Of a stretch of 64,000 nucleotides of DNA, positions 49,976 to 64,000 are shown piece by piece. The DNA lies in assembly GCA_963845755.1 (NCBI GenBank), contig CAWJTV010000036.1, forward strand, positions 320,001-384,000. The letters are read 5' to 3'. The translations under genes and the position numbers were made by a program. Below the pieces are notes generated by a model, which was not told the DNA's origin, ran no database searches, and was given only the letters and a program-made list of their open reading frames with translations. Each line of letters opens with the position of its first letter. Position 1 is the stretch's first letter. The stretch comes from an uncultured Planctomycetota bacterium (GTDB lineage: Bacteria > Planctomycetota > Planctomycetia > Isosphaerales > Isosphaeraceae).

Positions 49976-50641
49976 TGGGGATGCCCACCCCTCGACCTCG
50001 AGGCGCGACCACGGCGATCTCCCGGTGGAACGTGGCCCCGGCGCTCCATCGGCCGATCAGACCGCTACCACCAGGATATCCAGCTTCGAAATCGGTCGCA
50101 CAATCCGCCATTCGCCCCCGAGGGAACCCACCGCCGGTGCTTCGCTAAACCACAGGCTTTAATTTTTTTCCAAATTTTTTAACCCCCGTCATGGTCGAGA
50201 GTTCGGAAGCAAGACTGAGCAAACGGCGCGATAGGTGCATTTAAGAAAATCAAAAGTTGAGGCATCCTGATAATTAGAGTCACGGATTGTGCGCGCGGGA
50301 GTGGTCCGGCGCCGCTTGTGGCATGATCCCATCCCGCCTTCGCTGACGACTCACCGATGACCCATGACCACGGTTCCAGGCCCCGCCGCAATCTGCGAAC
50401 CGTGACGAGCCAGGCAGGGGAGGCCTCGCTTAAAAGCTGCCACCTTGTGCCATTCTCGGCTATCAATTATTCGCCCGAAATTGAAGAATTCATTGAGGTT
50501 AACTCGACGATGCCGGTGTGGGCCGGCCGACCCCCAGTGCCAACGGCTGTCTCCGCCCGTTTGGCGGTTTTCGTTCGAGAGTCGGAAATGCCGGATCGAG
50601 GCGTCGAGCCGCGGCGCCGTGCATGCAGGGAGCTGCCAACG

Positions 50642-53628
50642 ATGAGCCGATGGTCGATGCGCGTCGCGTTCTGGTGCGTGATCCTCCTGTCCACGGCGAA
50701 CGCCGCGGCCCGTGGCCAGGAACCGGGCAAGGCCGGTGGGTTCACACCGGAAGAGGCGGCAAAGCGGATGGTTGTGCCGGAGGGGTTCCACGTCGAGGTC
50801 TTCGCAGCCGAGCCGATGGTGCGTCAGCCGGTGACCGCCAGCTTCGACGAGCGGGGGCGGCTCTGGGTCGTCGAATACTTGCAGTACCCCAACCCGGCCG
50901 GGCTCAAGCCGGTGACGGTCAACCAGTATCTCCGGACCGAGTACGACAAGATGCCCGAGCCGCCGCCTCGGGGAGTGCGGGGTGCGGACCGGATCAAGAT
51001 CCTGGAGGACACCGATGGCGACGGCCGCGCCGATTCGGTCAAGGTCTTCGCCGAGGGGTTGAACCTGGCCTCGGCGCTGGCCGTCGGGCATGGCGGCGTG
51101 TTCGTCGGCCAGGCACCTTACCTGCTCTTCTACCCCGATCGCGACCACGACGATCGGCCCGACGGCGACCCCGAGGTCATGCTCACGGGGTTCGGGCTCC
51201 AGGACGCACACGCGGTGGTCAACTCGATGACCTGGGGGCCGGACGGCTGGCTGTATGGAGCCCAGGGGAGCACGGTCACCGCCCAGATCCGCGGCTACGG
51301 GTTCCAGCAAGGCATCTGGCGATATCATCCCCGGACCCGCCAGTTCGAGCTCTTCGCCGAGGGGGGCGGCAACACCTGGGGACTCGACTTCGACCTTGCC
51401 GGCAACGCCTTCGGCAGCAGTAACGGCGCGTACATCACCTTTCACATGGTCCAGGGCGGATATTACCTCAAGGGCTTCGCCAAGCACGGACCGCTCCACA
51501 ACCCGCACGCTTATGGCTATTTCGGCCCGATCGCCTACCAGGGGACCAAGCACGGCGGACACGTCACGCCGGGCGGGATCATCTACAAGGGCGACGCGTT
51601 GCCGCCGTCGTTTCGCGGCACCTTCATCGGGGGCAACCTGCTGTCGAACGCCGTCTACTGGCACGTCCTGGAGCGAAAGGGCTCGACGTTCGCCGGCCGG
51701 CACGGTGGGACGCTCATCGATTCTCGCGACCGGTGGTGCCGGCCGATCGACCTCCTCGCCGGGCCCGATGCCGCCATCTATGTTGTGGACTGGTACGACA
51801 AGCGCACCGCCCATCTCGACCCCCGCGACACCTGGGATCGGACCAATGGGCGGATCTATCGCGTGGTCTATGGGACCCGGCGGAAGATCGAGCCCTTCAA
51901 CCTGGCGAAACGGACCTCCACCGAACTCGTCGCCTTGCGGACCAGCACCAACGACTGGTTCCCGGCGGAGGCCCGGCGACATCCTCGCCGAGCGCCGGGA
52001 TCCGTCCATCGTGCCCCTGTTGAAGCGGATGCTGACCTCTGACCGCGACGAGACCGTGGCTCTCCGCGATCTCTGGGCGTTGCATGTCAGCGGCGGGCTC
52101 GACGACGCGACGGCGATGCAGCTCTTGGAGCATCCAGTCGCGGGCGTGAGGCGCTGGACCCTCCGGCTGCTGGGCGACGATCATCGGATGAACCGGGATC
52201 TCCGAGCGAAGCTCGAGGCCCTGGCGACCACGGAGCCCGACGCGATGGTCCGAAGCCAGCTCGCGTCGAGTTGCCAGCGATGGGAGGCCAACGACGCACT
52301 GTCGATCCTGGACGGACTGGTCCGGCATGACGAGGATCTTCAGGATCCCTATATCCCAAACCAGGTCTGGTGGGCATTCGAGCGACAATTGCGACAGGAT
52401 CGCGACGCGGTGATCGCCCTGCTGTGTACGGCGGACCTGGCCCACACCCCCCTGCTCCGCGTCGCAGTGCTCGAGCGCGTGGCACGGGCCCTGGCGTCGG
52501 ACGGTTCCGACGGCGACTACGGGGCGTTGGCCCGCCTGTTGGCGGCCGCGCACGGACCGGATTCGGTCGCTCGGATCCTGACCGGGATGGAGAAAGGACT
52601 TGAGGGCCGGAAGCTCGCGCGGACGCCCACGCCGCTCGTCGAGCCCCTGGCGCGGATCTGGTCCGCGGGGCAACCTGCACCGGGCGCGGACCTGATCCGC
52701 CTGGCCGCCCGGATGGGGGATGCTCCGGCGATCGAGGCGGCGGTCCGCAAGGCTCGCGACTCGCGCCGCCCCGTCCGACCGGATCACCATGATCGAGCTC
52801 CTCGGCCAGCTCGGCCGATTCGACGACCTTTCCACTCTCCTCGAGATCCTCAACCGTGACCCGAATGCGACCATCCAGCTCGCCGCGGTTGCTGCATTGG
52901 GGGGTTACTCCCAGCCGACGATTGCTCAACCGCTGATTGAACGCTACCGGTCGGCCACGGCCAGCATTCGCGCCAGGATCCTGGGATTACTCGGCACCCG
53001 ACGGCCGTGGGCTGCCGCCTTGCTGGATGCGATCGAGCGCCGACAGATCGCCGCGAAGGACTTGAGCGCCGCGAACGTCCAGCTCATCGCGCGGTTGTCC
53101 GACCCGGCACTGCTGGCCCGGCTGGAGGCCGCCTGGGGAAAGATCCCCCGCGTGGGCTCGCCCGAGAAGAAGCAGCGGATCGCCGAGATCCGCGGCCTGC
53201 TCCCCGAGGGCGATAAGGGAAACGCCGCGCGCGGCAAGCCGATCTTCAAAGAGAACTGCGCCGTCTGCCACAAGCTCTTCAACGAGGGGGAATCGATCGG
53301 TCCGGATCTCACCGGTTCCGAGCGCGGCGACCTCGATTTCCTCATGGCCAGCCTGGTGGATCCCAGCGCGCTGGTCCGCAAGGAGTACCAGTCCCAGACG
53401 CTCGCCCTCCGCGACGGCCGGGTCTTGACCGGACTGGTCGTCAACGAGAACGACCGGTCTTTGACACTGGTCGACAGCAACCGACAGAAGACGGTCATCC
53501 CTCGGGAGGCGGTCGAGGAGGCCAAGGCGTCGGAGGTCTCGCTCATGCCGGAGGGTCTGCTCGACAAACTGACCGAGCCGCAGATCCGCGACCTGTTCCG
53601 ATACGTCCAGAGCTCGGGCGGGCGTTGA
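50642..53628 (+). CDS. PVC-type heme-binding CxxCH protein (membrane-bound dehydrogenase-like propeller + HEAT repeats + cytochrome c), two frameshifts
   Basis: VPEGFHVEVFAAEP, FDERGRLWV, WGPDGWLY, RPIDL..GPD..IYVVDWY, CAVCH, IGPDLT, SLMPEGL. Confidence 0.88.
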
Positions 53629-53759
53629 GGTGGCCCAGCGAGCATACCCGCCAGCCGCAAAAACGAATCACCGTGGTGCTGGATCAGCCAATTTCTACAC
53701 TTGCCGAATTCGTGAATCTGTGCAGTCCTCACCGTAGTCTCGCACCTGGCGGTCCATCA

Positions 53760-55203
<1,444 letters not shown>

Positions 55204-55358
55204 GGGTTCGATGGCTAGGGCCTGTGTCGCGCCATCCTCGCCGAGGGGGGTATCCGGCCCTTGTAAGGTGGGTGAAACCCACCGGCATCGGGGGGCCGAT
55301 CCTCGTTGGGTTTCACCCACCCTACGGGGAGGCGCTGATCGTCACCGGCCCGTCGCAA

Positions 55359-58310
55359 CTACTCCATAAACATGAATTCGTTGGTCAACAACAACACCTG
55401 TGTCAACTGTTCCCAGGGAGAGAGTGGCGGGTCGGCGAGCGAGCCGCCGGTCTTGCCCTTCATGATCTGCTTCCAGCCGTCGAGCCGGGGCGCGGACGGT
55501 CCGGCCTCGCAGCGGAGGAACTCGGCCGCCAGCGCGAGCTCATCGGCATCGGGCGGGCGCGCGAGGACGCGGCGGTAGAGCCGGCGGATGCCGTCGGCCG
55601 GGTCGGCGGACGCGTCCTGCCCGATCGCGGCCGACAGCCGTCGCGCTTGCTGGTGCAGGAACGGGCTGTTCATCAGGAAGAGGGCTTGTTGCGGGACGGT
55701 CGTCACGAACCGTCGCGGGCTGGTCGCGTCGGGGACGGCGAAGTCGAACGTGCGATAGAGTCCGTCGAGGTTCTGGCGGTCGATGAAGCCGTAAACCGTG
55801 CGACGGGTCGAGAACGGGGCCTCGGTGATCGCCACCGGCCGGCCTCCGATCGCGGGGTCCAGGTCGCCCGAGACCGCCAGGATCGAGTCGCGCATCGCCT
55901 CGAAATCGAGCCGCTGGGGGCTGAACCGCCAGACCAACCGGTTCTCGGGGTCTTTCGAGGCGACATCCGGCCTCGGGGCGCTGCTCTGTTGATAGGTGCG
56001 GGAGAGCATGATCCGGCGGTGCATCGCCTTGATCGACCAGCCGTCGGCCTGGAACCCGGCGGCCAGGTGATCGAGCAGTTCGGGGTGGGACGGCGGGTCG
56101 CTCCGCAGGCCGAAGTCGCTGGGCGTGGTGACCAGTCCCTTGCCGAAGTGCCAGTGCCAGACGCGGTTGACCAGCACCCGGGCCGTGAGTGGGTTCCTGG
56201 CGTCGGCGATCGCCTGTGCCAGCTCGAGCCGGCCGCTCCCCTTGCGGAACGGCGGCGGCTCCGGCCCGGCGAGTACGTGGAGGAACCGGCGCGGGACCGC
56301 CTTGCCCGGCCGTCCCGGGTTGCCGCGGAGGAAGACATGCGGCTCGACCGGCTGGGGTGCATCGTTGAGCACCATGGCCCGAGCGGGGGCCGACGGATCG
56401 GTCGCATTCAGCCGATCGATGGCGCCGTTGAGCTGAGCGAGCTGATTCCCTTGCGTTTGGTCGAGGTAAAGGCGCCGGGGATACTCCGAAGCGGCAAGAG
56501 GCCCGCCCGGTCCGAAGAGTGCCTGGCGGAACGACTCCCATTCGGGCTCAGGAAGAGGCGTCGCGGACTGGGACTTGACCGACTTTTGCGCGACCTCTGC
56601 CTTCTGCCTCGCCTCGAGCTGGCCGAAAAGACCGACATACCGCGCGACAACCTCACTCATGCTCGACGGAGGCGAACCACTCAATAACGCCCGCGCGATC
56701 AGGGGATGAATCGCCTTGGCCGCCGCGATGGCCGGGTCCCGGTGGACGTCCGCCGCCCTGGTAACGAAGCGCTCGCGGGGCAAGGCGGCGAAGGCCAGCC
56801 AGGGGGCCAGGATCGGGTCGGACTTCGAGGCCGTCGCATCCAGACGCTGTTTCCAGAGCATCATCACGCCGCGAAGTCGTCGCGCATTCAGCTTGTCGGC
56901 CAGGGCGCGCTCCTCCAGTCGCGGGTTCCTCGTGTTGAAGTCGAGCTCATAACCGGCCTTCAGATACTGAGAGAACCGCGCGGCGAGGTCTCTCTGGACG
57001 TCGTCGCGACGCGCCGTGAGGTAAGCGTCCCGCTTCTTCTTGGCCGCCTCGAGTTTGCGCAAGAAGTCGGCGGATCGGTCGGCCTTGCCGGCCCCGGGCC
57101 AATCCAGCGCGGGGAGATCGGCCGGCTCGGTCGAGCTGGCGAAGACGCCGTAGAGCGAGTAATAGTCGTCGGTCGGGATCGGGTCGAACTTGTGATCGTG
57201 GCATCGGGCGCAGGTGACCGTCAGGCCGAGCAGACCGCGGCTGACGACGTCGATCCGATCGTCGATGATCTCATTCTGGTCCAGGAGGAACCTCCGGCCG
57301 ACCGTCAGGAACCCCATGGCGGCCAGGGGCCGGGTGTCGCCGTCCTGAGGGAGTTGATCGGCGGCGAGCTGCTGGATGATGAACCGATCGTAAGGCAAGT
57401 CGGCGTTGAAGGCGTTGATGACGTAGTCGCGATAGGTGAAGGCATAAGGATATCGGCGTTCCTGGGTGAAGACATAGCCCTTGGTATCGGCGTAACGTGC
57501 GACGTCGAGCCAGTGCCGCCCCCAGCGCTCGCCGTATCGCGGCGACGCCAGGAGTCGGTTGACCACGTTGGCGAAGGCGTCCGGCGACGCATCGGCCTCG
57601 AACGCCTCGACCTCGTCGGCCGTCGGAGGAACGCCCCAGAGGTCGATCGTGGCGCGGCGGATCAAGGCGCGCTTCCCGGCCGGCGGCGACGGAGCGATCC
57701 CCGCGGCTTCCAGCCGGGCCATGATGAACGCGTCGATCGGCGATTCACCCCAGCTCTTGTCATGCACTGGTGGCGGAAGGACCGTCCTCAACGGCCGGAA
57801 GGCCCAGTGGGCCGGCGCGTTGGCCGAGTGAGACATCGCCGCATTCTTGGCCGTATCGTCCGGCCAGGGCGCACCGAGGGAGACCCATCGCGTCAGGAAC
57901 TGCACGTCCGCGTCGGAGAGCTTCCCGTTCGGCGGCATCTTCAACTCGTCGTGCCGGTAAGTCACGGCCTGGACCATCAGGCTCGCCTCGGGCTTGGCCG
58001 GTACGACCGCCGGCCCGGTATCACCCCCCTTGAGCGCCGCTGCCTGGCTGTCGAGCCGCAGGCCCGACGACTGCTTCCGAGGCCCGTGGCACTTGACGCA
58101 CCGTTCGACCAGGATCGGCCGGACCCGCGCCTCGAAGAACTCGACCGCCTCCGGCGATGGCGAAGTCGCGACCGGCTTCGGCTCATCGGCCCGAGTTCGC
58201 AGGGCACCCAGGCCCCCGCTCTCCGCGATCACGGTAATGGCCAGCGCCAACCGGCAGAAACGTCCGATCCGGAATCTTCTCCCCAATCGCTCAGGTCGAT
58301 CTCGGTCCAT
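55359..58310 (-). CDS. PSD1 and planctomycete cytochrome c domain protein (DUF1549/DUF1553)
   Basis: CVKCH, YGERWGRHWLDVARYAD, CARCHDHKFDP, NPLTARVLVNRVW, PSHPELLD, PQQALFLMN. Confidence 0.92.
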   Translation of the reverse strand: MDRDRPERLGRRFRIGRFCRLALAITVIAESGGLGALRTRADEPKPVATSPSPEAVEFFEARVRPILVERCVKCHGPRKQSSGLRLDSQAAALKGGDTGPAVVPAKPEASLMVQAVTYRHDELKMPPNGKLSDADVQFLTRWVSLGAPWPDDTAKNAAMSHSANAPAHWAFRPLRTVLPPPVHDKSWGESPIDAFIMARLEAAGIAPSPPAGKRALIRRATIDLWGVPPTADEVEAFEADASPDAFANVVNRLLASPRYGERWGRHWLDVARYADTKGYVFTQERRYPYAFTYRDYVINAFNADLPYDRFIIQQLAADQLPQDGDTRPLAAMGFLTVGRRFLLDQNEIIDDRIDVVSRGLLGLTVTCARCHDHKFDPIPTDDYYSLYGVFASSTEPADLPALDWPGAGKADRSADFLRKLEAAKKKRDAYLTARRDDVQRDLAARFSQYLKAGYELDFNTRNPRLEERALADKLNARRLRGVMMLWKQRLDATASKSDPILAPWLAFAALPRERFVTRAADVHRDPAIAAAKAIHPLIARALLSGSPPSSMSEVVARYVGLFGQLEARQKAEVAQKSVKSQSATPLPEPEWESFRQALFGPGGPLAASEYPRRLYLDQTQGNQLAQLNGAIDRLNATDPSAPARAMVLNDAPQPVEPHVFLRGNPGRPGKAVPRRFLHVLAGPEPPPFRKGSGRLELAQAIADARNPLTARVLVNRVWHWHFGKGLVTTPSDFGLRSDPPSHPELLDHLAAGFQADGWSIKAMHRRIMLSRTYQQSSAPRPDVASKDPENRLVWRFSPQRLDFEAMRDSILAVSGDLDPAIGGRPVAITEAPFSTRRTVYGFIDRQNLDGLYRTFDFAVPDATSPRRFVTTVPQQALFLMNSPFLHQQARRLSAAIGQDASADPADGIRRLYRRVLARPPDADELALAAEFLRCEAGPSAPRLDGWKQIMKGKTGGSLADPPLSPWEQLTQVLLLTNEFMFME

Positions 58311-58690: not shown

Positions 58691-58842
58691 TGGGTTCGTT
58701 TCGTTGATTTCGTACTCTTCGGACCCGTGTCCTGGCTTCGTTTCGTCGATTTCGTGTTCGGGCGACCGCGTGCTCTGGGTTCGTTTCGTCGATTTGGCGC
58801 GGGTCGGCCCGCCCGACTGGGTTCGTTTCGTCGTTTTCGTTT
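58691..58842. repeat. Four copies of a ~21-nt motif (GGGTTCGTTTCGTCGATTTCG consensus) at 42-43 bp spacing
   Basis: Copies start at 58692, 58734, 58777 and 58819 with dissimilar intervening sequence. Confidence 0.8.
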
Positions 58843-59436
58843 CCGATGATCGCCGAGCGCTCCGCCGCCCGATTTCGATCCAGGTCTTCATGCTACCACT
58901 CACTCTCTTCGCCTTTTTGCGCACCCCGAACGCCGCCAGGAAGTCCCGATACCTTTTATTAATGGACACTTTTGAAGAATTAGCAACTCGGCTCCGGGAA
59001 TTCGTGAGATGGGTTCGGGTGTTTGGAGACGACCATCGGCTCCGATCGCAGGAGGACTTCTCCTCAATAGAGCGAGGGCATCTTGGCGTGAACGTGGAAC
59101 ACGATTTGAAATCAACTTGTTGGTATTATGGGTGCGTGCACGGATGTTTCATGGGTTTCCTGGAGAGCAGTCATGACTAGCGGCATACCGGTACACGCCC
59201 TTTTTTGGTTTTTCGGGAATTTTTTTTGGGGATGACAGTAGAAGTCCTACCCCTCGTCCTACGATGCAGTTATGATCGGACGCTGAGGGGGGTGGATGAC
59301 CCCACGCAACCCACGAGGACGGAGTCTCGACGGAGCAAGATCGGGCCACGGTGAAGGTGAATCACTCCACACTCAGAACCTGACGTCGAGTCGAAAGCCG
59401 CGTTGAAGGTGTGGGTGCTCCGGAGGAGTTCGGGCC

Positions 59437-60421
59437 ATGTATAAGGCCGCGCGACCGCCTGTGCGGCGGATGATGGTGATTGACCAGGCGCTGCGGGCCA
59501 ACCGGTGGCCTAACTCCACAACGCTCGCCAGGGAGCTGGAAGTCACCATCCGGACGGTCCGGCGCGACGTCGCCTACCTGCGGAATCAATTGCGCGCGCC
59601 GATTCGATTCGACCCACGACGCAACGGTTATCACTACACGGAGCCGACCTACCGGTTACCCCTCTTTCAGCTCACCGAGGGGGAGCTCATCCGCTCTACC
59701 TGGTCGAGCGGCTCATGAGGCAATTGGAGGGGACGCCGTTCGAGTCGGACTTGCGACAGGCGATTGCCAAGCTGGGCGAGTTGCTCCCCGACGGCGTGTC
59801 GATCCGCCTCGACGCGATGGCCGACATGCTGTCAATCCTCCCGGCGGTCCGGCCGTATTACGACCCGGAATCGTTCTGCGCCCTCACGACGGCCGTCGCC
59901 TGCCGACACCGGGTGGAGATGGTCTACTGGACGGCGAGCCGGAACGAGACGACCCGGCGCACATTCGACCCGTACGATCTGGTCCTGATCGAAGACGGCT
60001 GGTATGCGGTCGGCTATTGCCATCTCCGCGCGGAGGTCCGGACGTTCGCCGTGCAGCGCGTCCGGTCGTTGCGCGCGACGGGCGAGACGTTCGACCGCCC
60101 GGCCGACTTCCGGCTCGAGGACTACATGAGAGGCTGCTTCCGGCCGTCCGCGGCGACGGTGATCATCGAGGTCGTCCTCCGCTTCACGCCCGACGTCGCT
60201 GGCCGGATCGCCGAGAAACAATGGCACCCGAGCCAGACTATCGAACACCAGCCCGACGGCAGCCTGATCGTCCGGTTCCGGCTTTCGAGCCTCGTCGAAG
60301 TGAAGCGATGGGCGATGTATTGGGGGGAAGCATGCGAGGTGATGGGCCAAGTGTTCTGCGCGAGGCCATCGCGGAGGAAATCGAGAGAATGGCGGCAACT
60401 ACCTATCTGAAAGGCGTTTAA
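59437..60421 (+). CDS. wHTH-WYL-WCX transcriptional regulator (frameshifted)
   Basis: LARELEVTIRTVRRDVAYLR; RRTFDPYDLV...GWYAVGYCHLRAEVRTFAVQRV; WHPSQ; EVKRWAMYWG. Confidence 0.9.
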
Positions 60422-60532
60422 GGAAAATGGCGTGTCGTCGAGCGAAAAAGGAGGCCCTTCTTGGGGTCGAGATCACGTATTACAAGATGTGGAGAGAGTG
60501 TTGCTTGTAGTTTCCAAGTAGTGAGGTCTGCC

Positions 60533-61029
60533 ATGACATCGTACGAGACATCGGTCGTCATGAGACTTTGGATGCTGGTCGTCCGTTTTCTCCGTCGGAA
60601 GGGTTTTCAGGAGAGCGTCGCTGAGGACATCGCAAGCGCAATGCGTGTGAGCATGATCGAGAGACATTCGCAATTCTTGCAGGGAGGATATCCCTCGAAA
60701 CTACCTCGTTGCCTGTCTCGGGAAGCCCTATCCAGAGCCTCCGTTGCATTGAAACGATCACAACGAGTAAAGAATCTAGATCCTCATGACATGGATATGA
60801 CTCTGAATTTCGAGGCCAATGCAGCCAAAGCAAGCTTTCTTCGTGTCAGGAAGCGCGATACGACGGCCTCAGGATGTTTCTCAGCGAGGCAAAGATCAAG
60901 AAATTGGAGGAGTGCACTTCCGCCTGCGGCGGCGAGAAACCGAGGCAGTCTGATCTGGCCAGATCGATTGGCATGAAACGGAAGAAGTGGAAAGCTCTAC
61001 GAGACAAGATGAGAGCATTCCTAGCCTAG
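60533..61029 (+). CDS. Divergent ECF sigma-70-like / HTH protein (~165 aa if one frameshift between about 60790 and 60850 is corrected)
   Basis: GAGGT then ATG 60533. N-half VRFLRRKGFQESVAEDIA...LSREALSRA...LKRSQR resembles sigma region 2. Alternate frame open 60790-61029 gives LSEAKIKKLE...RQSDLARSIGMKRKKWKALRDKMRAFLA*, resembling region 4. Confidence 0.5.
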
Positions 61030-61153
61030 ATTTGTGATTTCCATAATAACAAGGATTGAAACCTTGTGAGTTTTCAAGCAGGAACGAACCCCAGCGATTC
61101 GTGCCCGACTCGGGCACGGTCGCCCGTCGGTTCCATCAGAACCCTATTCACAC
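61026..61153 (+). CRISPR. Mini-array / crRNA-like RNA: one 37-nt type I-B-style repeat, one spacer, a hairpin and a degenerate second repeat
   Basis: Repeat CTAGATTTGTGATTTCCATAATAACAAGGATTGAAAC (61026-61062); spacer from 61063 CTTGTGAGTTTTCAAGCAGG...; hairpin CGTGCCCGACTCGGGCACG (61100-61118); degenerate repeat GTCGCCCGTCGGTTCCATCAGAACCCTATTCACAC (61119-61153). Directly upstream of cas6. Confidence 0.75.
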
Positions 61154-61172: not shown

Positions 61173-61848
61173 TTGACAGGCGTCGTCGACAAGACGATCG
61201 ACTTCATGAGCATCCAGCATGATCTGGGCGTTCGGCTCACAATGTCGCATGCCCGTTGGCTTCGCGGGGCAGTCATTCGGCGCGCCAACCGGCCCGAATT
61301 TCATCAGCATGACGACGATGGGGTGATCTATCGCCATCCACTGATCCGCTACGACGTAAGCACGGGCTCGGCGAGATCGCCGGCCTCGCCGAAGGTGCTT
61401 TACTACTCCGATCCATGCCTGCCCTTGAAGCGTTCTCGCTAGGAGGCGAAACCTTGAGAGTCCGGCAGCGAGATGTCGAGGTGACCCGCGTCGAGATCGG
61501 CCCCACAACAGATCCGATCCATTATTCGTTTCAGACCCCTTATCTGGGCTTGAACCAGCAGAACCACCACGATTGGGACGCAGCTCCGATCCGGAACGTC
61601 GGTGTCTGCTCAGTCGGATTGTGATCGGTAACCTGCTCTCGCTGTCTAAGGCAATCGGGCTGCACGTCTCCGAGCGTTTGCATGCTGAGGTTGACTTGGA
61701 GCCCTGCGGGATGCAGACTCTCAAGCCCGGTCTCGCTTTGCTCGGCTTCCGAGGCTCGGTCCGGATCAACTTTCGGTTGCCGACCCGGTGGGGGATCGGC
61801 AAGAGCAGCGCCCGCGGTTTCGGGACCTTGGTTGTTCAGGAGGCGTGA
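61173..61848 (+). CDS. cas6: CRISPR-associated endoribonuclease Cas6 (Cas6b-like), two frameshifts
   Basis: GGAGG then TTG 61173; LRGA...FHQH....IYRHPLIRY, TPYLGLNQQN, IVIGNLLSLSKAIG, Gly-rich GIGKSSARGFG. Confidence 0.88.
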
Positions 61849-61849
61849 G

Positions 61850-63844
61850 ATGGCCAAATCCAAGTCTTCATCCGGTTCCGTCTCGAACGTGGCCATCGAG
61901 TTTCCACGGACGGGTAATCCCTGGACTGATGCCGGGACCGTCGGCCTTTACCGCATATTGAACCGAGGGAAGTCGAGTTACGTCGACCCGCCGGCTGATC
62001 TTGACTTCGATCTCGTTCAAGCGTCACGGTTCCCTGATGTCCGATTCGACGAGCTGCAGCAAGATCGGTTCGTGATCAGGGGACCGACGGACCAGGTTCA
62101 AGCCTGCCTGGAAGCGGCCTATGAGCGCCTCGTGTCAATCTACTTCAACGTATCGAGCAAGAAGCAAAAGGAGGAGAAGGGGACCTACAATTTTTATTAC
62201 TGTCGCTCTGAGCAGGACTTCATCTCATTCGCCAAGAAGAAAGCGGCCGGAGCGGCGCTGCTACTCTTCGATAAGGCCGCGAGGCCATCCCGGGATCAAG
62301 CGGAGTGGGGGACCTTACCCGATGCGCGCGGCAAGCCCGTCCGGACAGCCGGTCGGATGCCACCAGATTATGCCCACCTCCAGGAGAAGCTTGATGAGTT
62401 TCTGACTCGTGAAGGTCTCAAGCCTGGGCCACCGGCCGGCCTGCTCATCGACGGACCCAACCAGGTCCGGCCCAAGGTCGAGATCCGCGTCGCTGACCAT
62501 TCCGCCAAGCCCAAGTCCTTCTGTTTCTTGAGCGGTGACCCCGGCTCCACGTTCGTCGAGGCCAAGGAGACGGCATTTCCGCTCCTGGGAGGCAGCCGGT
62601 CGTTCATCAATGGCGTCGCTGACTGGCCCCGCATGGGTTGGAAGATCGACTTCGTCGGGAAGTTCGTCCCTGCCGTCTCGTTCTTCTATCTCCAGGGTGA
62701 GGATATCCACGTCTTTTTTCCGGAATCGACCAACCTCCGGCGCATCGATGCACTGGCCGATATGCTGGCGGGCATGGTCCAACTCGAACCGAACCTCTTC
62801 AGGAATTTCGAGTTGTTGCTGAGCTCACCGAAGCTCCGGCCCTTCTTCCAGCGCCGCTCCGAAGTGGCTCTGGGGTTTCTATACACCGTGTTCGTCAAGC
62901 TCAGCGAACATCAGTCGCCCCCGATTGCCACGAAGCAGGGCGATTCAGCCGTCGGCTCGCGGCTCGTCTCGCTCGACGACGAGCCGGAGACACCCGAAGG
63001 ATCGGAGGAGGCCGAAGAAGAGCCGATCTCGATCGACGCCGTCTTCGGTGCCCTGCAAAGAGAAGGGGCGACAAGCTTCACCGTGGTCTCGGCTTCGAAG
63101 AAGGGGAACGTCTGGATGGCCCGCGACTTCACGACGTTTCGGGACATCGAGCGTCTGGCCCGGCTCTTCGCCCGCATGCAAAGACGGATCCAGATGAAGG
63201 ACGGGCGCGGCCGGTACGAGTGCGACCCGAAGAAGCTCATGGCTGCGCTCATCGACTTCGAGGCCAAGGCCGAGTCTCGTACCTTGCTCCGCGACAAAGT
63301 CTGTGAATCGCTCCTTCAGGGCGCAAGCGTACTGCCGCTACTGGAGCGGCATGCTTTTCACATCAACCCCCATGCCGATACGAGTCAGGCGCGGTCCGTT
63401 GGACCGCTGCTCGAATTCGCCCGGCTCTACGAACCGGAATTGCGGAAAGGAACTGATATGGAAGAACCCTATTCGCAGATGGTGAAAACCGCGACCTGGC
63501 TTGGCGACTCGATTGGCAAGGCACTCGCCCAAGCGGTGCTGGGAAGGAGCGATGACCAAGCCGAGGAGGGGCAGGCCAGAGAAGCCGCTCAGAAAGAGAG
63601 CCCGGGGCGGGCCAAGGGCGGTCTCTTCCGCTTGCGGAAGACTCGCACCATCGCCGACTTCGTCAACGAACTGGCCCGGCTCCAGTTTCGATACAAGATC
63701 GACGTTCCCAAGGAGGTGCTCGACGGCGATACGTTCTGCCCCGATCTCTTCGAGGAGTTTCGCGGGTTTTGTGTCGTCGCCGCGTTGAATCGGTTCCAGT
63801 ACCTGACCCGCAAGCGTACGCAGGCGCCGAACACGACCAACTGA
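61850..63844 (+). CDS. cas8: Type I-B large subunit Cas8 (Cst1/Cas8a1-like)
   Basis: N-terminal TGNPWTDAG.VGL motif; ~664 aa; lies between cas6 and cas7 with tight coupling. Confidence 0.75.
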   Translation: MAKSKSSSGSVSNVAIEFPRTGNPWTDAGTVGLYRILNRGKSSYVDPPADLDFDLVQASRFPDVRFDELQQDRFVIRGPTDQVQACLEAAYERLVSIYFNVSSKKQKEEKGTYNFYYCRSEQDFISFAKKKAAGAALLLFDKAARPSRDQAEWGTLPDARGKPVRTAGRMPPDYAHLQEKLDEFLTREGLKPGPPAGLLIDGPNQVRPKVEIRVADHSAKPKSFCFLSGDPGSTFVEAKETAFPLLGGSRSFINGVADWPRMGWKIDFVGKFVPAVSFFYLQGEDIHVFFPESTNLRRIDALADMLAGMVQLEPNLFRNFELLLSSPKLRPFFQRRSEVALGFLYTVFVKLSEHQSPPIATKQGDSAVGSRLVSLDDEPETPEGSEEAEEEPISIDAVFGALQREGATSFTVVSASKKGNVWMARDFTTFRDIERLARLFARMQRRIQMKDGRGRYECDPKKLMAALIDFEAKAESRTLLRDKVCESLLQGASVLPLLERHAFHINPHADTSQARSVGPLLEFARLYEPELRKGTDMEEPYSQMVKTATWLGDSIGKALAQAVLGRSDDQAEEGQAREAAQKESPGRAKGGLFRLRKTRTIADFVNELARLQFRYKIDVPKEVLDGDTFCPDLFEEFRGFCVVAALNRFQYLTRKRTQAPNTTN

Positions 63845-63857
63845 GGAGACCGCAACC

Positions 63858-64000
63858 GTGCCGACGATCAAGCAAGCTAAGGCCTTGACGATCACGTTTC
63901 TGACCCCGGTGTCGCTCGGCTCGCTCAACGGAAGCGACAAGGAAGCCGACAACCTGAGCAGCATCAAGAAGCTGACGCGCGGAACGAAGACCTATCCTTA
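63858..64000 (+). CDS. cas7: Cas7 (Cst2/DevR family), 5' part only
   Basis: GAGGAG then GTG 63858: VPTIKQAKALTITFLTPVSLGSLNGSDKEADNLSSIKKLTRGTKTYP; SLN...N...IKK....YP pattern. Confidence 0.8.
   Translation, partial: MPTIKQAKALTITFLTPVSLGSLNGSDKEADNLSSIKKLTRGTKTYP

Follow-up and report, generated by a model that had tools for sequence, protein, structure and literature searches.

Which gene lies between the WYL regulator gene and cas6 of this planctomycete CRISPR locus, and is it controlled by the very CRISPR system in which it is embedded? The stretch of DNA analysed (henceforth the window; 64,000 nucleotides, G000:C36:320001-384000) ends within a cas locus in which the WYL gene, the gene in question (X), a degenerate repeat, cas6b, cas8 and cas7 follow one another (Table 1), and which continues beyond the window with cas5, cas3, cas1, cas2, cas4 and the array (cas2 and cas4 being genes that we take to be such from their translations by eye). 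As the relatives' Cas7 proteins score above the Cst2/DevR cut-off, the system is of type I-B; besides this Cas7, Cas6b, a Cas5t-like protein (below its cut-off) and Cas3 were found, and the cas8 product matched no model in NCBIfam or the other libraries. The true array, with 177 repeats, lies ~9 kb downstream and outside the window (G000:C36:390413-403634), and its leader carries a housekeeping-like TTGCGG-17-TATAAC. The frameshifts in the WYL gene and the two in cas6b are likely assembly errors, and the WYL protein of the related locus L004 gave a PADLOC WYL match (1.6e-42).

Table 1. Features of the cas locus within the window (positions in the window; psiR, degenerate repeat; psiS, short guide).
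Feature	Position	Strand	Remarks
WYL-operator-like box (TGACA...AGTCC), candidate, with -10-like TACGAT	59233..59265	+	upstream of WYL gene
HTH-WYL-WCX transcriptional regulator	59437..60421	+	Pfam HTH_11, WYL, WCX; frameshifted; L004 relative intact
PAM-position TTG	60501..60503	+	
Target (protospacer)	60504..60521	+	begins 29 nt upstream of the ATG of X
Gene X, degenerate ECF-sigma-like, ~165 aa	60533..61029	+	sigma2-like three-helix domain, linker, HTH domain
Lone degenerate CRISPR repeat (psiR)	61026..61062	+	24/37 identical to array repeat
Short guide (psiS)	61063..61081	+	~17-19 nt complementary to target
Long hairpin	61081..61134	+	directly 3' of guide, in place of second repeat; z -3.3
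cas6b	61173..61848	+	Pfam Cas6b_N, Cas6b_C; two frameshifts
cas8 (large subunit), intact	61850..63844	+	assigned by position; 82% to L004 protein
cas7 start (Cst2/DevR, type I-B)	63858..64000	+	relatives' Cas7 above TIGR02585 cut-off

Gene X is real. The sequence-only reading had described a low-GC ORF whose C-half lies in a shifted frame, and this observation was confirmed: the GC content is 0.51-0.52 over 60400-61149, against 0.63-0.68 in the WYL gene and ~0.55-0.65 in cas6 and cas8 (0.50-0.54 for X genes as a group), the AEDI helix and LSREALSRASVALKR both stand in the frame of the N-half, which opens at the ATG at 60533, and QSDLARSIGM and the stop codon (TAG 61027-61029) are read in another. 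Both frames are matched by an intact relative of 154 residues at L004, which shows the two halves to be one gene; the frame break falls between ~60790 and ~60832. Seven of the eight locus genes tested in the same assembly (all but cas8), and rpoC as well, are split between frames; indel errors are therefore pervasive in it, and because of these splits and of the intact relatives the frameshift in X is very likely a long-read error. Short-read contigs (run X1) cover two pieces only, 60666-60816 (two substitutions, no gap) and 60886-61036 (identical). Intact copies of X were found in seven relatives (L004, L007, L019, L063, P0004, P0009 and P0010), and dN/dS amounted to 0.24-0.33 in all six pairs compared, as opposed to 0.13-0.24 for cas6 and 0.17-0.22 for the WYL gene; X evolves fast but under purifying selection, and appears as a degenerate derivative of an ECF sigma factor. 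The family is small, with 7 matches at E ≤0.001 among 1.84 billion representatives (two of them long, spurious-looking proteins) and 10 matches in a profile search. Viral contigs held no relative of X, and six viral matches to the repeat pattern were rejected as arrays or unrelated stretches with neither X nor cas6. One relative (L018:45-510) has an in-frame TGA inside the HTH and keeps the repeat and the guide.

We define as the cassette the promoter with the target, X, the degenerate repeat, the short guide and the hairpin, altogether ~700 bp. A search for cas6 in 121 genomes of the family yielded 14 matches, nine of them with the cassette; in G305 a very close cas6 stands directly behind the WYL gene without it, and four genomes with more distant cas6 genes also lack it. 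Among 11 metagenome cas6 loci, three have X and the repeat, and L024 is an empty locus; in this survey the list from the X profile is complete and the upstream DNA of a few distant loci lay outside the comparison. The close relatives L024 and L061 have neither degenerate repeat nor sigma-like gene, and in empty loci the WYL gene runs straight into cas6. Only the last 32 residues of X are present at L017, whose score by the C-domain profile is circular and was excluded from the evidence. A second clade of cassettes is found where Cas7 is nearest to CT1132/Csh2 (below cut-offs) and cas2 lies upstream of the cassette, so that the cassette occurs with two I-B Cas7 subtypes and in two gene contexts. 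A sigma-like gene stands in front of the degenerate repeat in 12 of the 12 loci that have such a repeat before cas6. No anti-sigma gene was found within the cassette.

X had been proposed as the target of CRISPR control with the guide left unspecified; guide, target and PAM can now be defined, and they co-vary over nine loci. The degenerate repeat retains the TCC-N10-GGA stem-loop and the 3' ATTGAAAC, the predicted source of an 8-nt handle, its 3' part is invariant in seven aligned loci, and it gives a weak match to Rfam CRISPR-DR7 (E 0.24, below gathering). The overlap of the stop codon of X with a CRISPR repeat stands in so far as the TAG lies within 61026-61062, although the element is a lone degenerate copy and not a repeat of the array. 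Guide and target match at 14 of 16 positions in the window, with guide position 6 unpaired, a score reached by 0 of 200 shuffles. Over the whole genome (14.3 Mb) two sites combine PAM and seed, of which the target is the better (16/18 versus 13/18); the other, on C21, extends poorly, is without counterpart in relatives and was taken as chance. A guide-target match behind TTG or TTA recurs in all nine loci, of the 12, that have enough upstream DNA to be testable, and in each of them 0 of 200 shuffles reach the score; the PAM position, which was not scored, reads TTG in six and TTA in three. TTN is a PAM of type I-B systems. None of the 174 array spacers led to a protospacer in their own genome that could be used to derive a PAM.

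Where guide and target align without gaps (seven loci), 13-14 of 15 scored positions match, and position 12 is mismatched in 7/7 and position 6 in 5/7. Every sixth base of the guide is flipped out in Cascade, and the mismatches thus seem to fall mostly at positions that would not pair in the complex. The matches of the window (14/16) and of L067 (15/16) can be aligned only with one base bulged at guide position 6, which may be a sequencing error or a tolerated bulge; by comparison with relatives, the window has an extra guide base (61063-61070) and L067 lacks a target base. Among L004-L007 each guide scores best on its own target (14 versus 6-12), and the four loci found with cas8 all share the layout and differ in their guides. 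In each of four relative genomes (G223, G354, G227 and G002) the PAM-plus-seed site is unique genome-wide and lies upstream of X, and the distance from target to X start ranges from 17 to 46 nt across loci. The cassette loci are kin and hence non-independent; yet they carry different guides, and both Cas7 type and gene context are different in the second clade.

Downstream of the guide, the hairpin that takes the place of a second repeat was strong in six of the eight loci folded (z of -5.2 to -6.1 in five relatives; not significant in L006 and L007), with compensatory changes at 0 of 14 pairs in four sequences, and its probable role is to bound or terminate the guide RNA. In L007 a second degenerate repeat is present; in L063 and the second-clade loci, repeat and guide are both enclosed by a long stem. 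A sigma-70 scan returned no plus-strand promoter and, with it, none that would serve guide and cas6 separately. The standalone, handle-keeping repeat and the seed-matched guide with a constant motif at the PAM position would make the RNA part of the cassette CreA/CreR-like.

Is X derived from a sigma factor? Several lines of evidence, each of them weak, concur in favouring an ECF-sigma origin. In sequence searches of Pfam, NCBIfam, PADLOC, PHROGs and the PDB, clade-1 X (the clade of the window) had no significant match, and five X proteins had none in PADLOC or PHROGs. The best Pfam model for clade 1 was Sigma70_r2 (E 0.058-0.12, below cut-off), with no region 4 match. Clade 2 passes the Sigma70_r4_2 cut-off in L070 and L067 without matching region 2, and reaches E 2e-6 to 6e-5 with TIGR02937 (below cut-off). 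X appears to be sigma-derived, yet by these results it lacks the joint Pfam sigma2 and sigma4 domains by which ECF sigma-70 factors are recognised in the available part of PMC7826278. The cargo of the second clade is more plainly sigma-like than clade-1 X, and hhalign probabilities between clade-1 and clade-2 sigmas were 3-7% (18% for L063). When the X profile was run against 401 genomes, the next matches included two ordinary-looking ECFs (E 2e-5 and 5e-4), a third weak match being unrelated. Against a profile built from 171 ECFs of the host genome (G000), with 100 shuffles for each piece, the N-half of the window's X beat 100/100 shuffles and 9/13 pieces did likewise, aligning end to end; the window's C-half, P0003, P0010 and L063 did not beat all shuffles.

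Structural comparisons pointed the same way for the N-terminal domain. In the Atlas, the nearest clusters to the N-half were sigma-70 region 2 (0.94-0.95; 145-155 shared features, where same-family pairs typically have 170), and the C-half reached 0.76, a lead only. In a check of fold against sigma regions 2 and 4, as suggested in the sequence-only reading, the first 11 Foldseek rows for the AF2 model of X (pLDDT 80, pTM 0.49) were sigma-like, but none was significant (E 0.25-1.1; no E <0.001 with this model or that of the C-domain), and the C-domain resembled only HTH domains in general. In VIA, ECF sigma2 domains (Z 6.2-6.4; SigL Z 6.4, rmsd 3.3, 76 aligned) tie with Set2 SRI (Z 7.2, rmsd 2.9, 80 aligned). 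The C-terminal domain was modelled as a four-helix HTH (pLDDT 84.5), for which sigmaA region 4 (Foldseek E 1.6; VIA Z 4.0, rmsd 3.2, 59 aligned) ranks among generic HTH matches.

The region 2.2 glutamine and region 2.3 tryptophan, present in 98% and 88% of the 171 host ECFs, remain in 2/13 and about 1/14 rows of clade-1 X (the tryptophan column being approximate), and the typical promoter-opening residues thus appear lost. The absence of the DxxQ glutamine, as read from the window's X, holds for that copy but not for the P0011/L007 subfamily and most second-clade proteins, which have it. An acidic residue occupies the place of the DAED aspartate in all 13 X rows that cover it. When X was modelled with the beta' clamp of the same genome (beta' residues 1-345), the score was 0.82 in three runs, compared to 0.10 for the best control, with at least 42% of contacts shared between runs and a partner pLDDT of at least 66; the mark applied is reached by 116 of 157 solved pairs and 2 of 215 mismatched pairs. 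The modelled contacts join E31, D32 and D36 of X to R268, R272 and R275 of beta', which is the textbook interface of sigma and polymerase; the pass therefore shows likeness, not binding by the window's copy, and may stem from solved sigma-polymerase complexes remembered by the predictor. According to the available text of PMC8999054, DAED contacts beta'. X keeps the acidic core-binding motif of region 2.2, and binding to core polymerase is predicted from the model.

Taken together, the best reading of these features is that Cascade is guided by an RNA of CreA/CreR type and represses X, probably together with the downstream cas genes. In this reading, a mobile cassette sits in front of cas6. 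As in known I-B processing, Cas6b would cut the degenerate repeat to give the 8-nt handle and a ~17-nt guide, with which Cascade would bind the TTG-flanked site 29 nt before the start of X, a pairing for which the co-variation is observed and the binding presumed. The short match would block transcription without triggering cutting by Cas3; the position of the target just upstream of the start fits blocking, and repression of X would probably extend to read-through into cas6-cas3, because the WYL gene runs straight into cas6 in empty loci. Once Cascade is lost, inhibited by an anti-CRISPR or swamped by ordinary crRNAs, X would be made. We hold this part of the scheme, from guide processing through repression to the release of X, to be highly probable. 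In the model, the acidic region-2.2 motif of X would then dock on the clamp helices of beta' and so attach X to core RNA polymerase; in what is the least certain step, X might tie up the polymerase and thereby slow or arrest the cell, as a protein counterpart of CreT/CreP in an addiction or abortive module. The chain as a whole, with a polymerase-sequestering toxin at its end, is tentative and slightly more doubtful than probable. We judge it rather probable, in more general terms, that Cascade, through a single-repeat guide RNA, has repeatedly become the 'anti-sigma' of a captured ECF sigma, its loss setting free either a polymerase-binding decoy toxin of a new class or a reprogrammer for backup defence.

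Still, the toxin is favoured over a second possibility, itself doubtful, that X works as an alternative sigma factor, albeit a divergent one, whose anti-sigma has been replaced by RNA-guided repression, so that Cascade depletion would turn on defence or cas genes as an anti-anti-CRISPR alarm. The two are not exclusive, growth inhibition at high X levels being compatible with an active sigma. The main point against a toxin is that no separate promoter was found for the guide and cas6; X may therefore be co-transcribed with the cas genes, which limits how toxic its basal level can be. Both domains and the conserved HTH are moreover kept under purifying selection, as for a working sigma; the CRISPR-linked sigmas on record, CASP-sigma and DdvS, are activators; L018 keeps its guide despite the stop in its HTH; and the matches of the window and L067 are bulged. 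An active sigma would also accord with the end-to-end alignment to the host-ECF profile, with the second clade, where two proteins pass the Sigma70_r4_2 cut-off and DxxQ is mostly kept, with the modelled core binding, and with precedents described in the available text of PMC10028731 (CASP-sigma motifs upstream of cas1) and of PMC6061681 (DdvS, which drives a III-B locus). Against it, clade 1 has lost the typical tryptophan and glutamine and has no protein at a sigma cut-off, and cas3 adjoins cas1 directly in the locus of the window, where the array leader is housekeeping-like. No X-specific promoter motif was found, with a search pattern that missed even the cassette's own sites. Finally, a CCGC-TT motif upstream is common to clade 1 and the second clade although their recognition helices differ, which counts against self-recognition by X.

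Could the guide simply be a CreR for autoregulation of the cas operon, acting at the promoter ahead of X, with X being a co-regulated DNA-binding regulator or passenger, neither toxin nor sigma? The WYL gene runs into cas6 in empty loci, which places the cassette on the route of the cas transcript; toxin-free CreR is common according to the available part of bioRxiv 2023.03.10.532045; and the fold search with the C-domain gave generic HTH matches only. We nevertheless consider this unlikely, given that the degenerate repeat always comes with a sigma-like gene (12/12), under two Cas7 subtypes and in two gene contexts, and that the core-binding residues are kept. Far less probable still is the suggestion, raised in the sequence-only reading, that guide-loaded Cascade recruits X for transcription at sites chosen by the RNA, in the manner of dCas12f-sigmaE. 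The pairing of a short guide with a sigma-like gene that has no anti-sigma, and the likeness of the short match to regulatory guides, would suit such a role, but the sole PAM-plus-seed site in each of the four relative genomes lies just upstream of the sigma start (17-46 nt before X across loci), Cas3 is retained, and X is without the C-terminal extension that the available text of PMC13472631 reports for dCas12f-linked sigmaE; with the TAM-to-start distance of 45-48 bp given there, transcription would start inside X in most loci. That X is a decaying sigma remnant with a genuinely broken frame is equally improbable, for although frame breaks occur in the window, L005, L006 and L069, a stop in L018, and the short reads lie off the window's break, the breaks fall at differing places, and the assemblies concerned split cas genes and rpoC too, seven relatives have intact copies, and dN/dS is 0.24-0.33. 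The sequence-only reading as a whole is partly supported, the polymerase-sequestering toxin that it also proposed being plausible.

Repression of X by a CreA/CreR-type RNA has close parallels among known systems. Akin to CrePA and CreTA, as far as described in the available part of 10.1101/2024.01.05.574328, the X cassette combines a small gene with a degenerate mini-CRISPR before the effector genes, and has a partial-match guide and a proper PAM ahead of the gene (the CrePA guide matches the first 19 nt except the 12th). According to the same text, CrePA is an Acinetobacter I-F system with two repeats, a target ~120 bp from the start and a toxic KilAC protein as cargo, compared to planctomycete I-B, one repeat plus hairpin (apart from the second degenerate repeat in L007), 17-46 nt and a sigma-derived protein of putative toxicity in the case of X, which, when scanned against Pfam with E values of up to 1-5 allowed, gave no KilAC (CreP) match. 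The available text on CreR and mini-arrays (10.1101/2023.03.10.532045; 10.1101/2023.03.03.530964) likewise describes, in type I-B, standalone repeats near cas6 with partial guides to a site upstream of the effector operon, and predicts mini-array control of cargo genes mainly for I-D; the first controlled gene in the X cassette loci is, in distinction, always sigma-like. The word 'sigma' is absent from the main texts of both and from two supplementary files of the latter. Sigma factors of ECF type also sit in or control CRISPR loci and are tied to defence in the case of CASP-sigma of III-E (PMC10028731), DdvS of Myxococcus (PMC6061681) and CalpS; in the accounts available these type III-linked factors are held by protein anti-sigmas (Csx30, DdvA and CalpT, respectively), whereas control of the far more degenerate X is apparently transcriptional and exerted by an RNA-guided type I complex. 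The dCas12f-sigmaE system, in the available text of PMC13472631, similarly links a sigma gene to an RNA-guided complex with a short guide; the X locus differs from it in its type I Cascade, Cas3 and large array, and X ends with the HTH, with no C-terminal extension. A Cascade-repressed sigma-like gene did not come up in full-text literature searches judged by title and the opening of the abstract, and the locus tables of the CreR and mini-array papers might list such genes.

The known cargoes repressed by Cascade are thus small toxic RNAs and a KilAC protein, and the known CRISPR-linked sigmas are held by protein anti-sigmas. The cassette would join both, as RNA-guided repression of a sigma-derived protein with two Cas7 subtypes, in a system that is small (~700 bp) and testable, its guide, target and PAM being defined. 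If the degenerate sigma is a toxin, its mechanism would be new among toxins; if it is active, it would serve as a transcriptional alarm for anti-CRISPR attack; and the sensing of anti-CRISPRs would, if the scheme is correct, be linked directly to RNA polymerase. The co-varying pairs further predict a TTG/TTA PAM and a minimal guide of one repeat plus hairpin for uncharacterised planctomycete Cascades.

Some minor observations concern the surroundings of the cassette. Sequence similar to the candidate box of the window occurs upstream of the WYL gene in L004, L005 and L006; we take this box to be of WYL-operator type, with a presumed role in regulation. TGAC...GTCA-like palindromes lie upstream of the WYL gene in the window and upstream of cas6 or the cassette in L020, L021 and L063, possibly as WYL operators providing a second layer of control. 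The T-rich intergenic DNA before the WYL gene contains, at 58691-58845, a repeat of the GGGTTCGTTTCGTCG type in two to three copies, likely a REP-like element, and the genes at 50357-58310, presumably for planctomycete-type large dehydrogenase/cytochrome-like and DUF1501/DUF1553-like proteins, are also frameshifted. The same-genus genome G001, which had no match in the cas6 search, has a standalone, near-intact repeat after a TGACA...TGTCA palindrome (L049; G001:C17:237401, minus strand) with no target within 1.5 kb, a possible RNA anti-CRISPR or orphan guide. About 3 kb upstream of its WYL/cas1 region, the cassette-bearing locus L073 (G035:C8) has an ECF sigma of canonical appearance with a long gene downstream of it. 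In the genome of the window, spacer s172, near the far end of the array, has many repeat-like genomic matches and is probably not a true spacer, and a cluster of 54 GGATTGAAAY motifs on G000:C19 is probably another CRISPR array.
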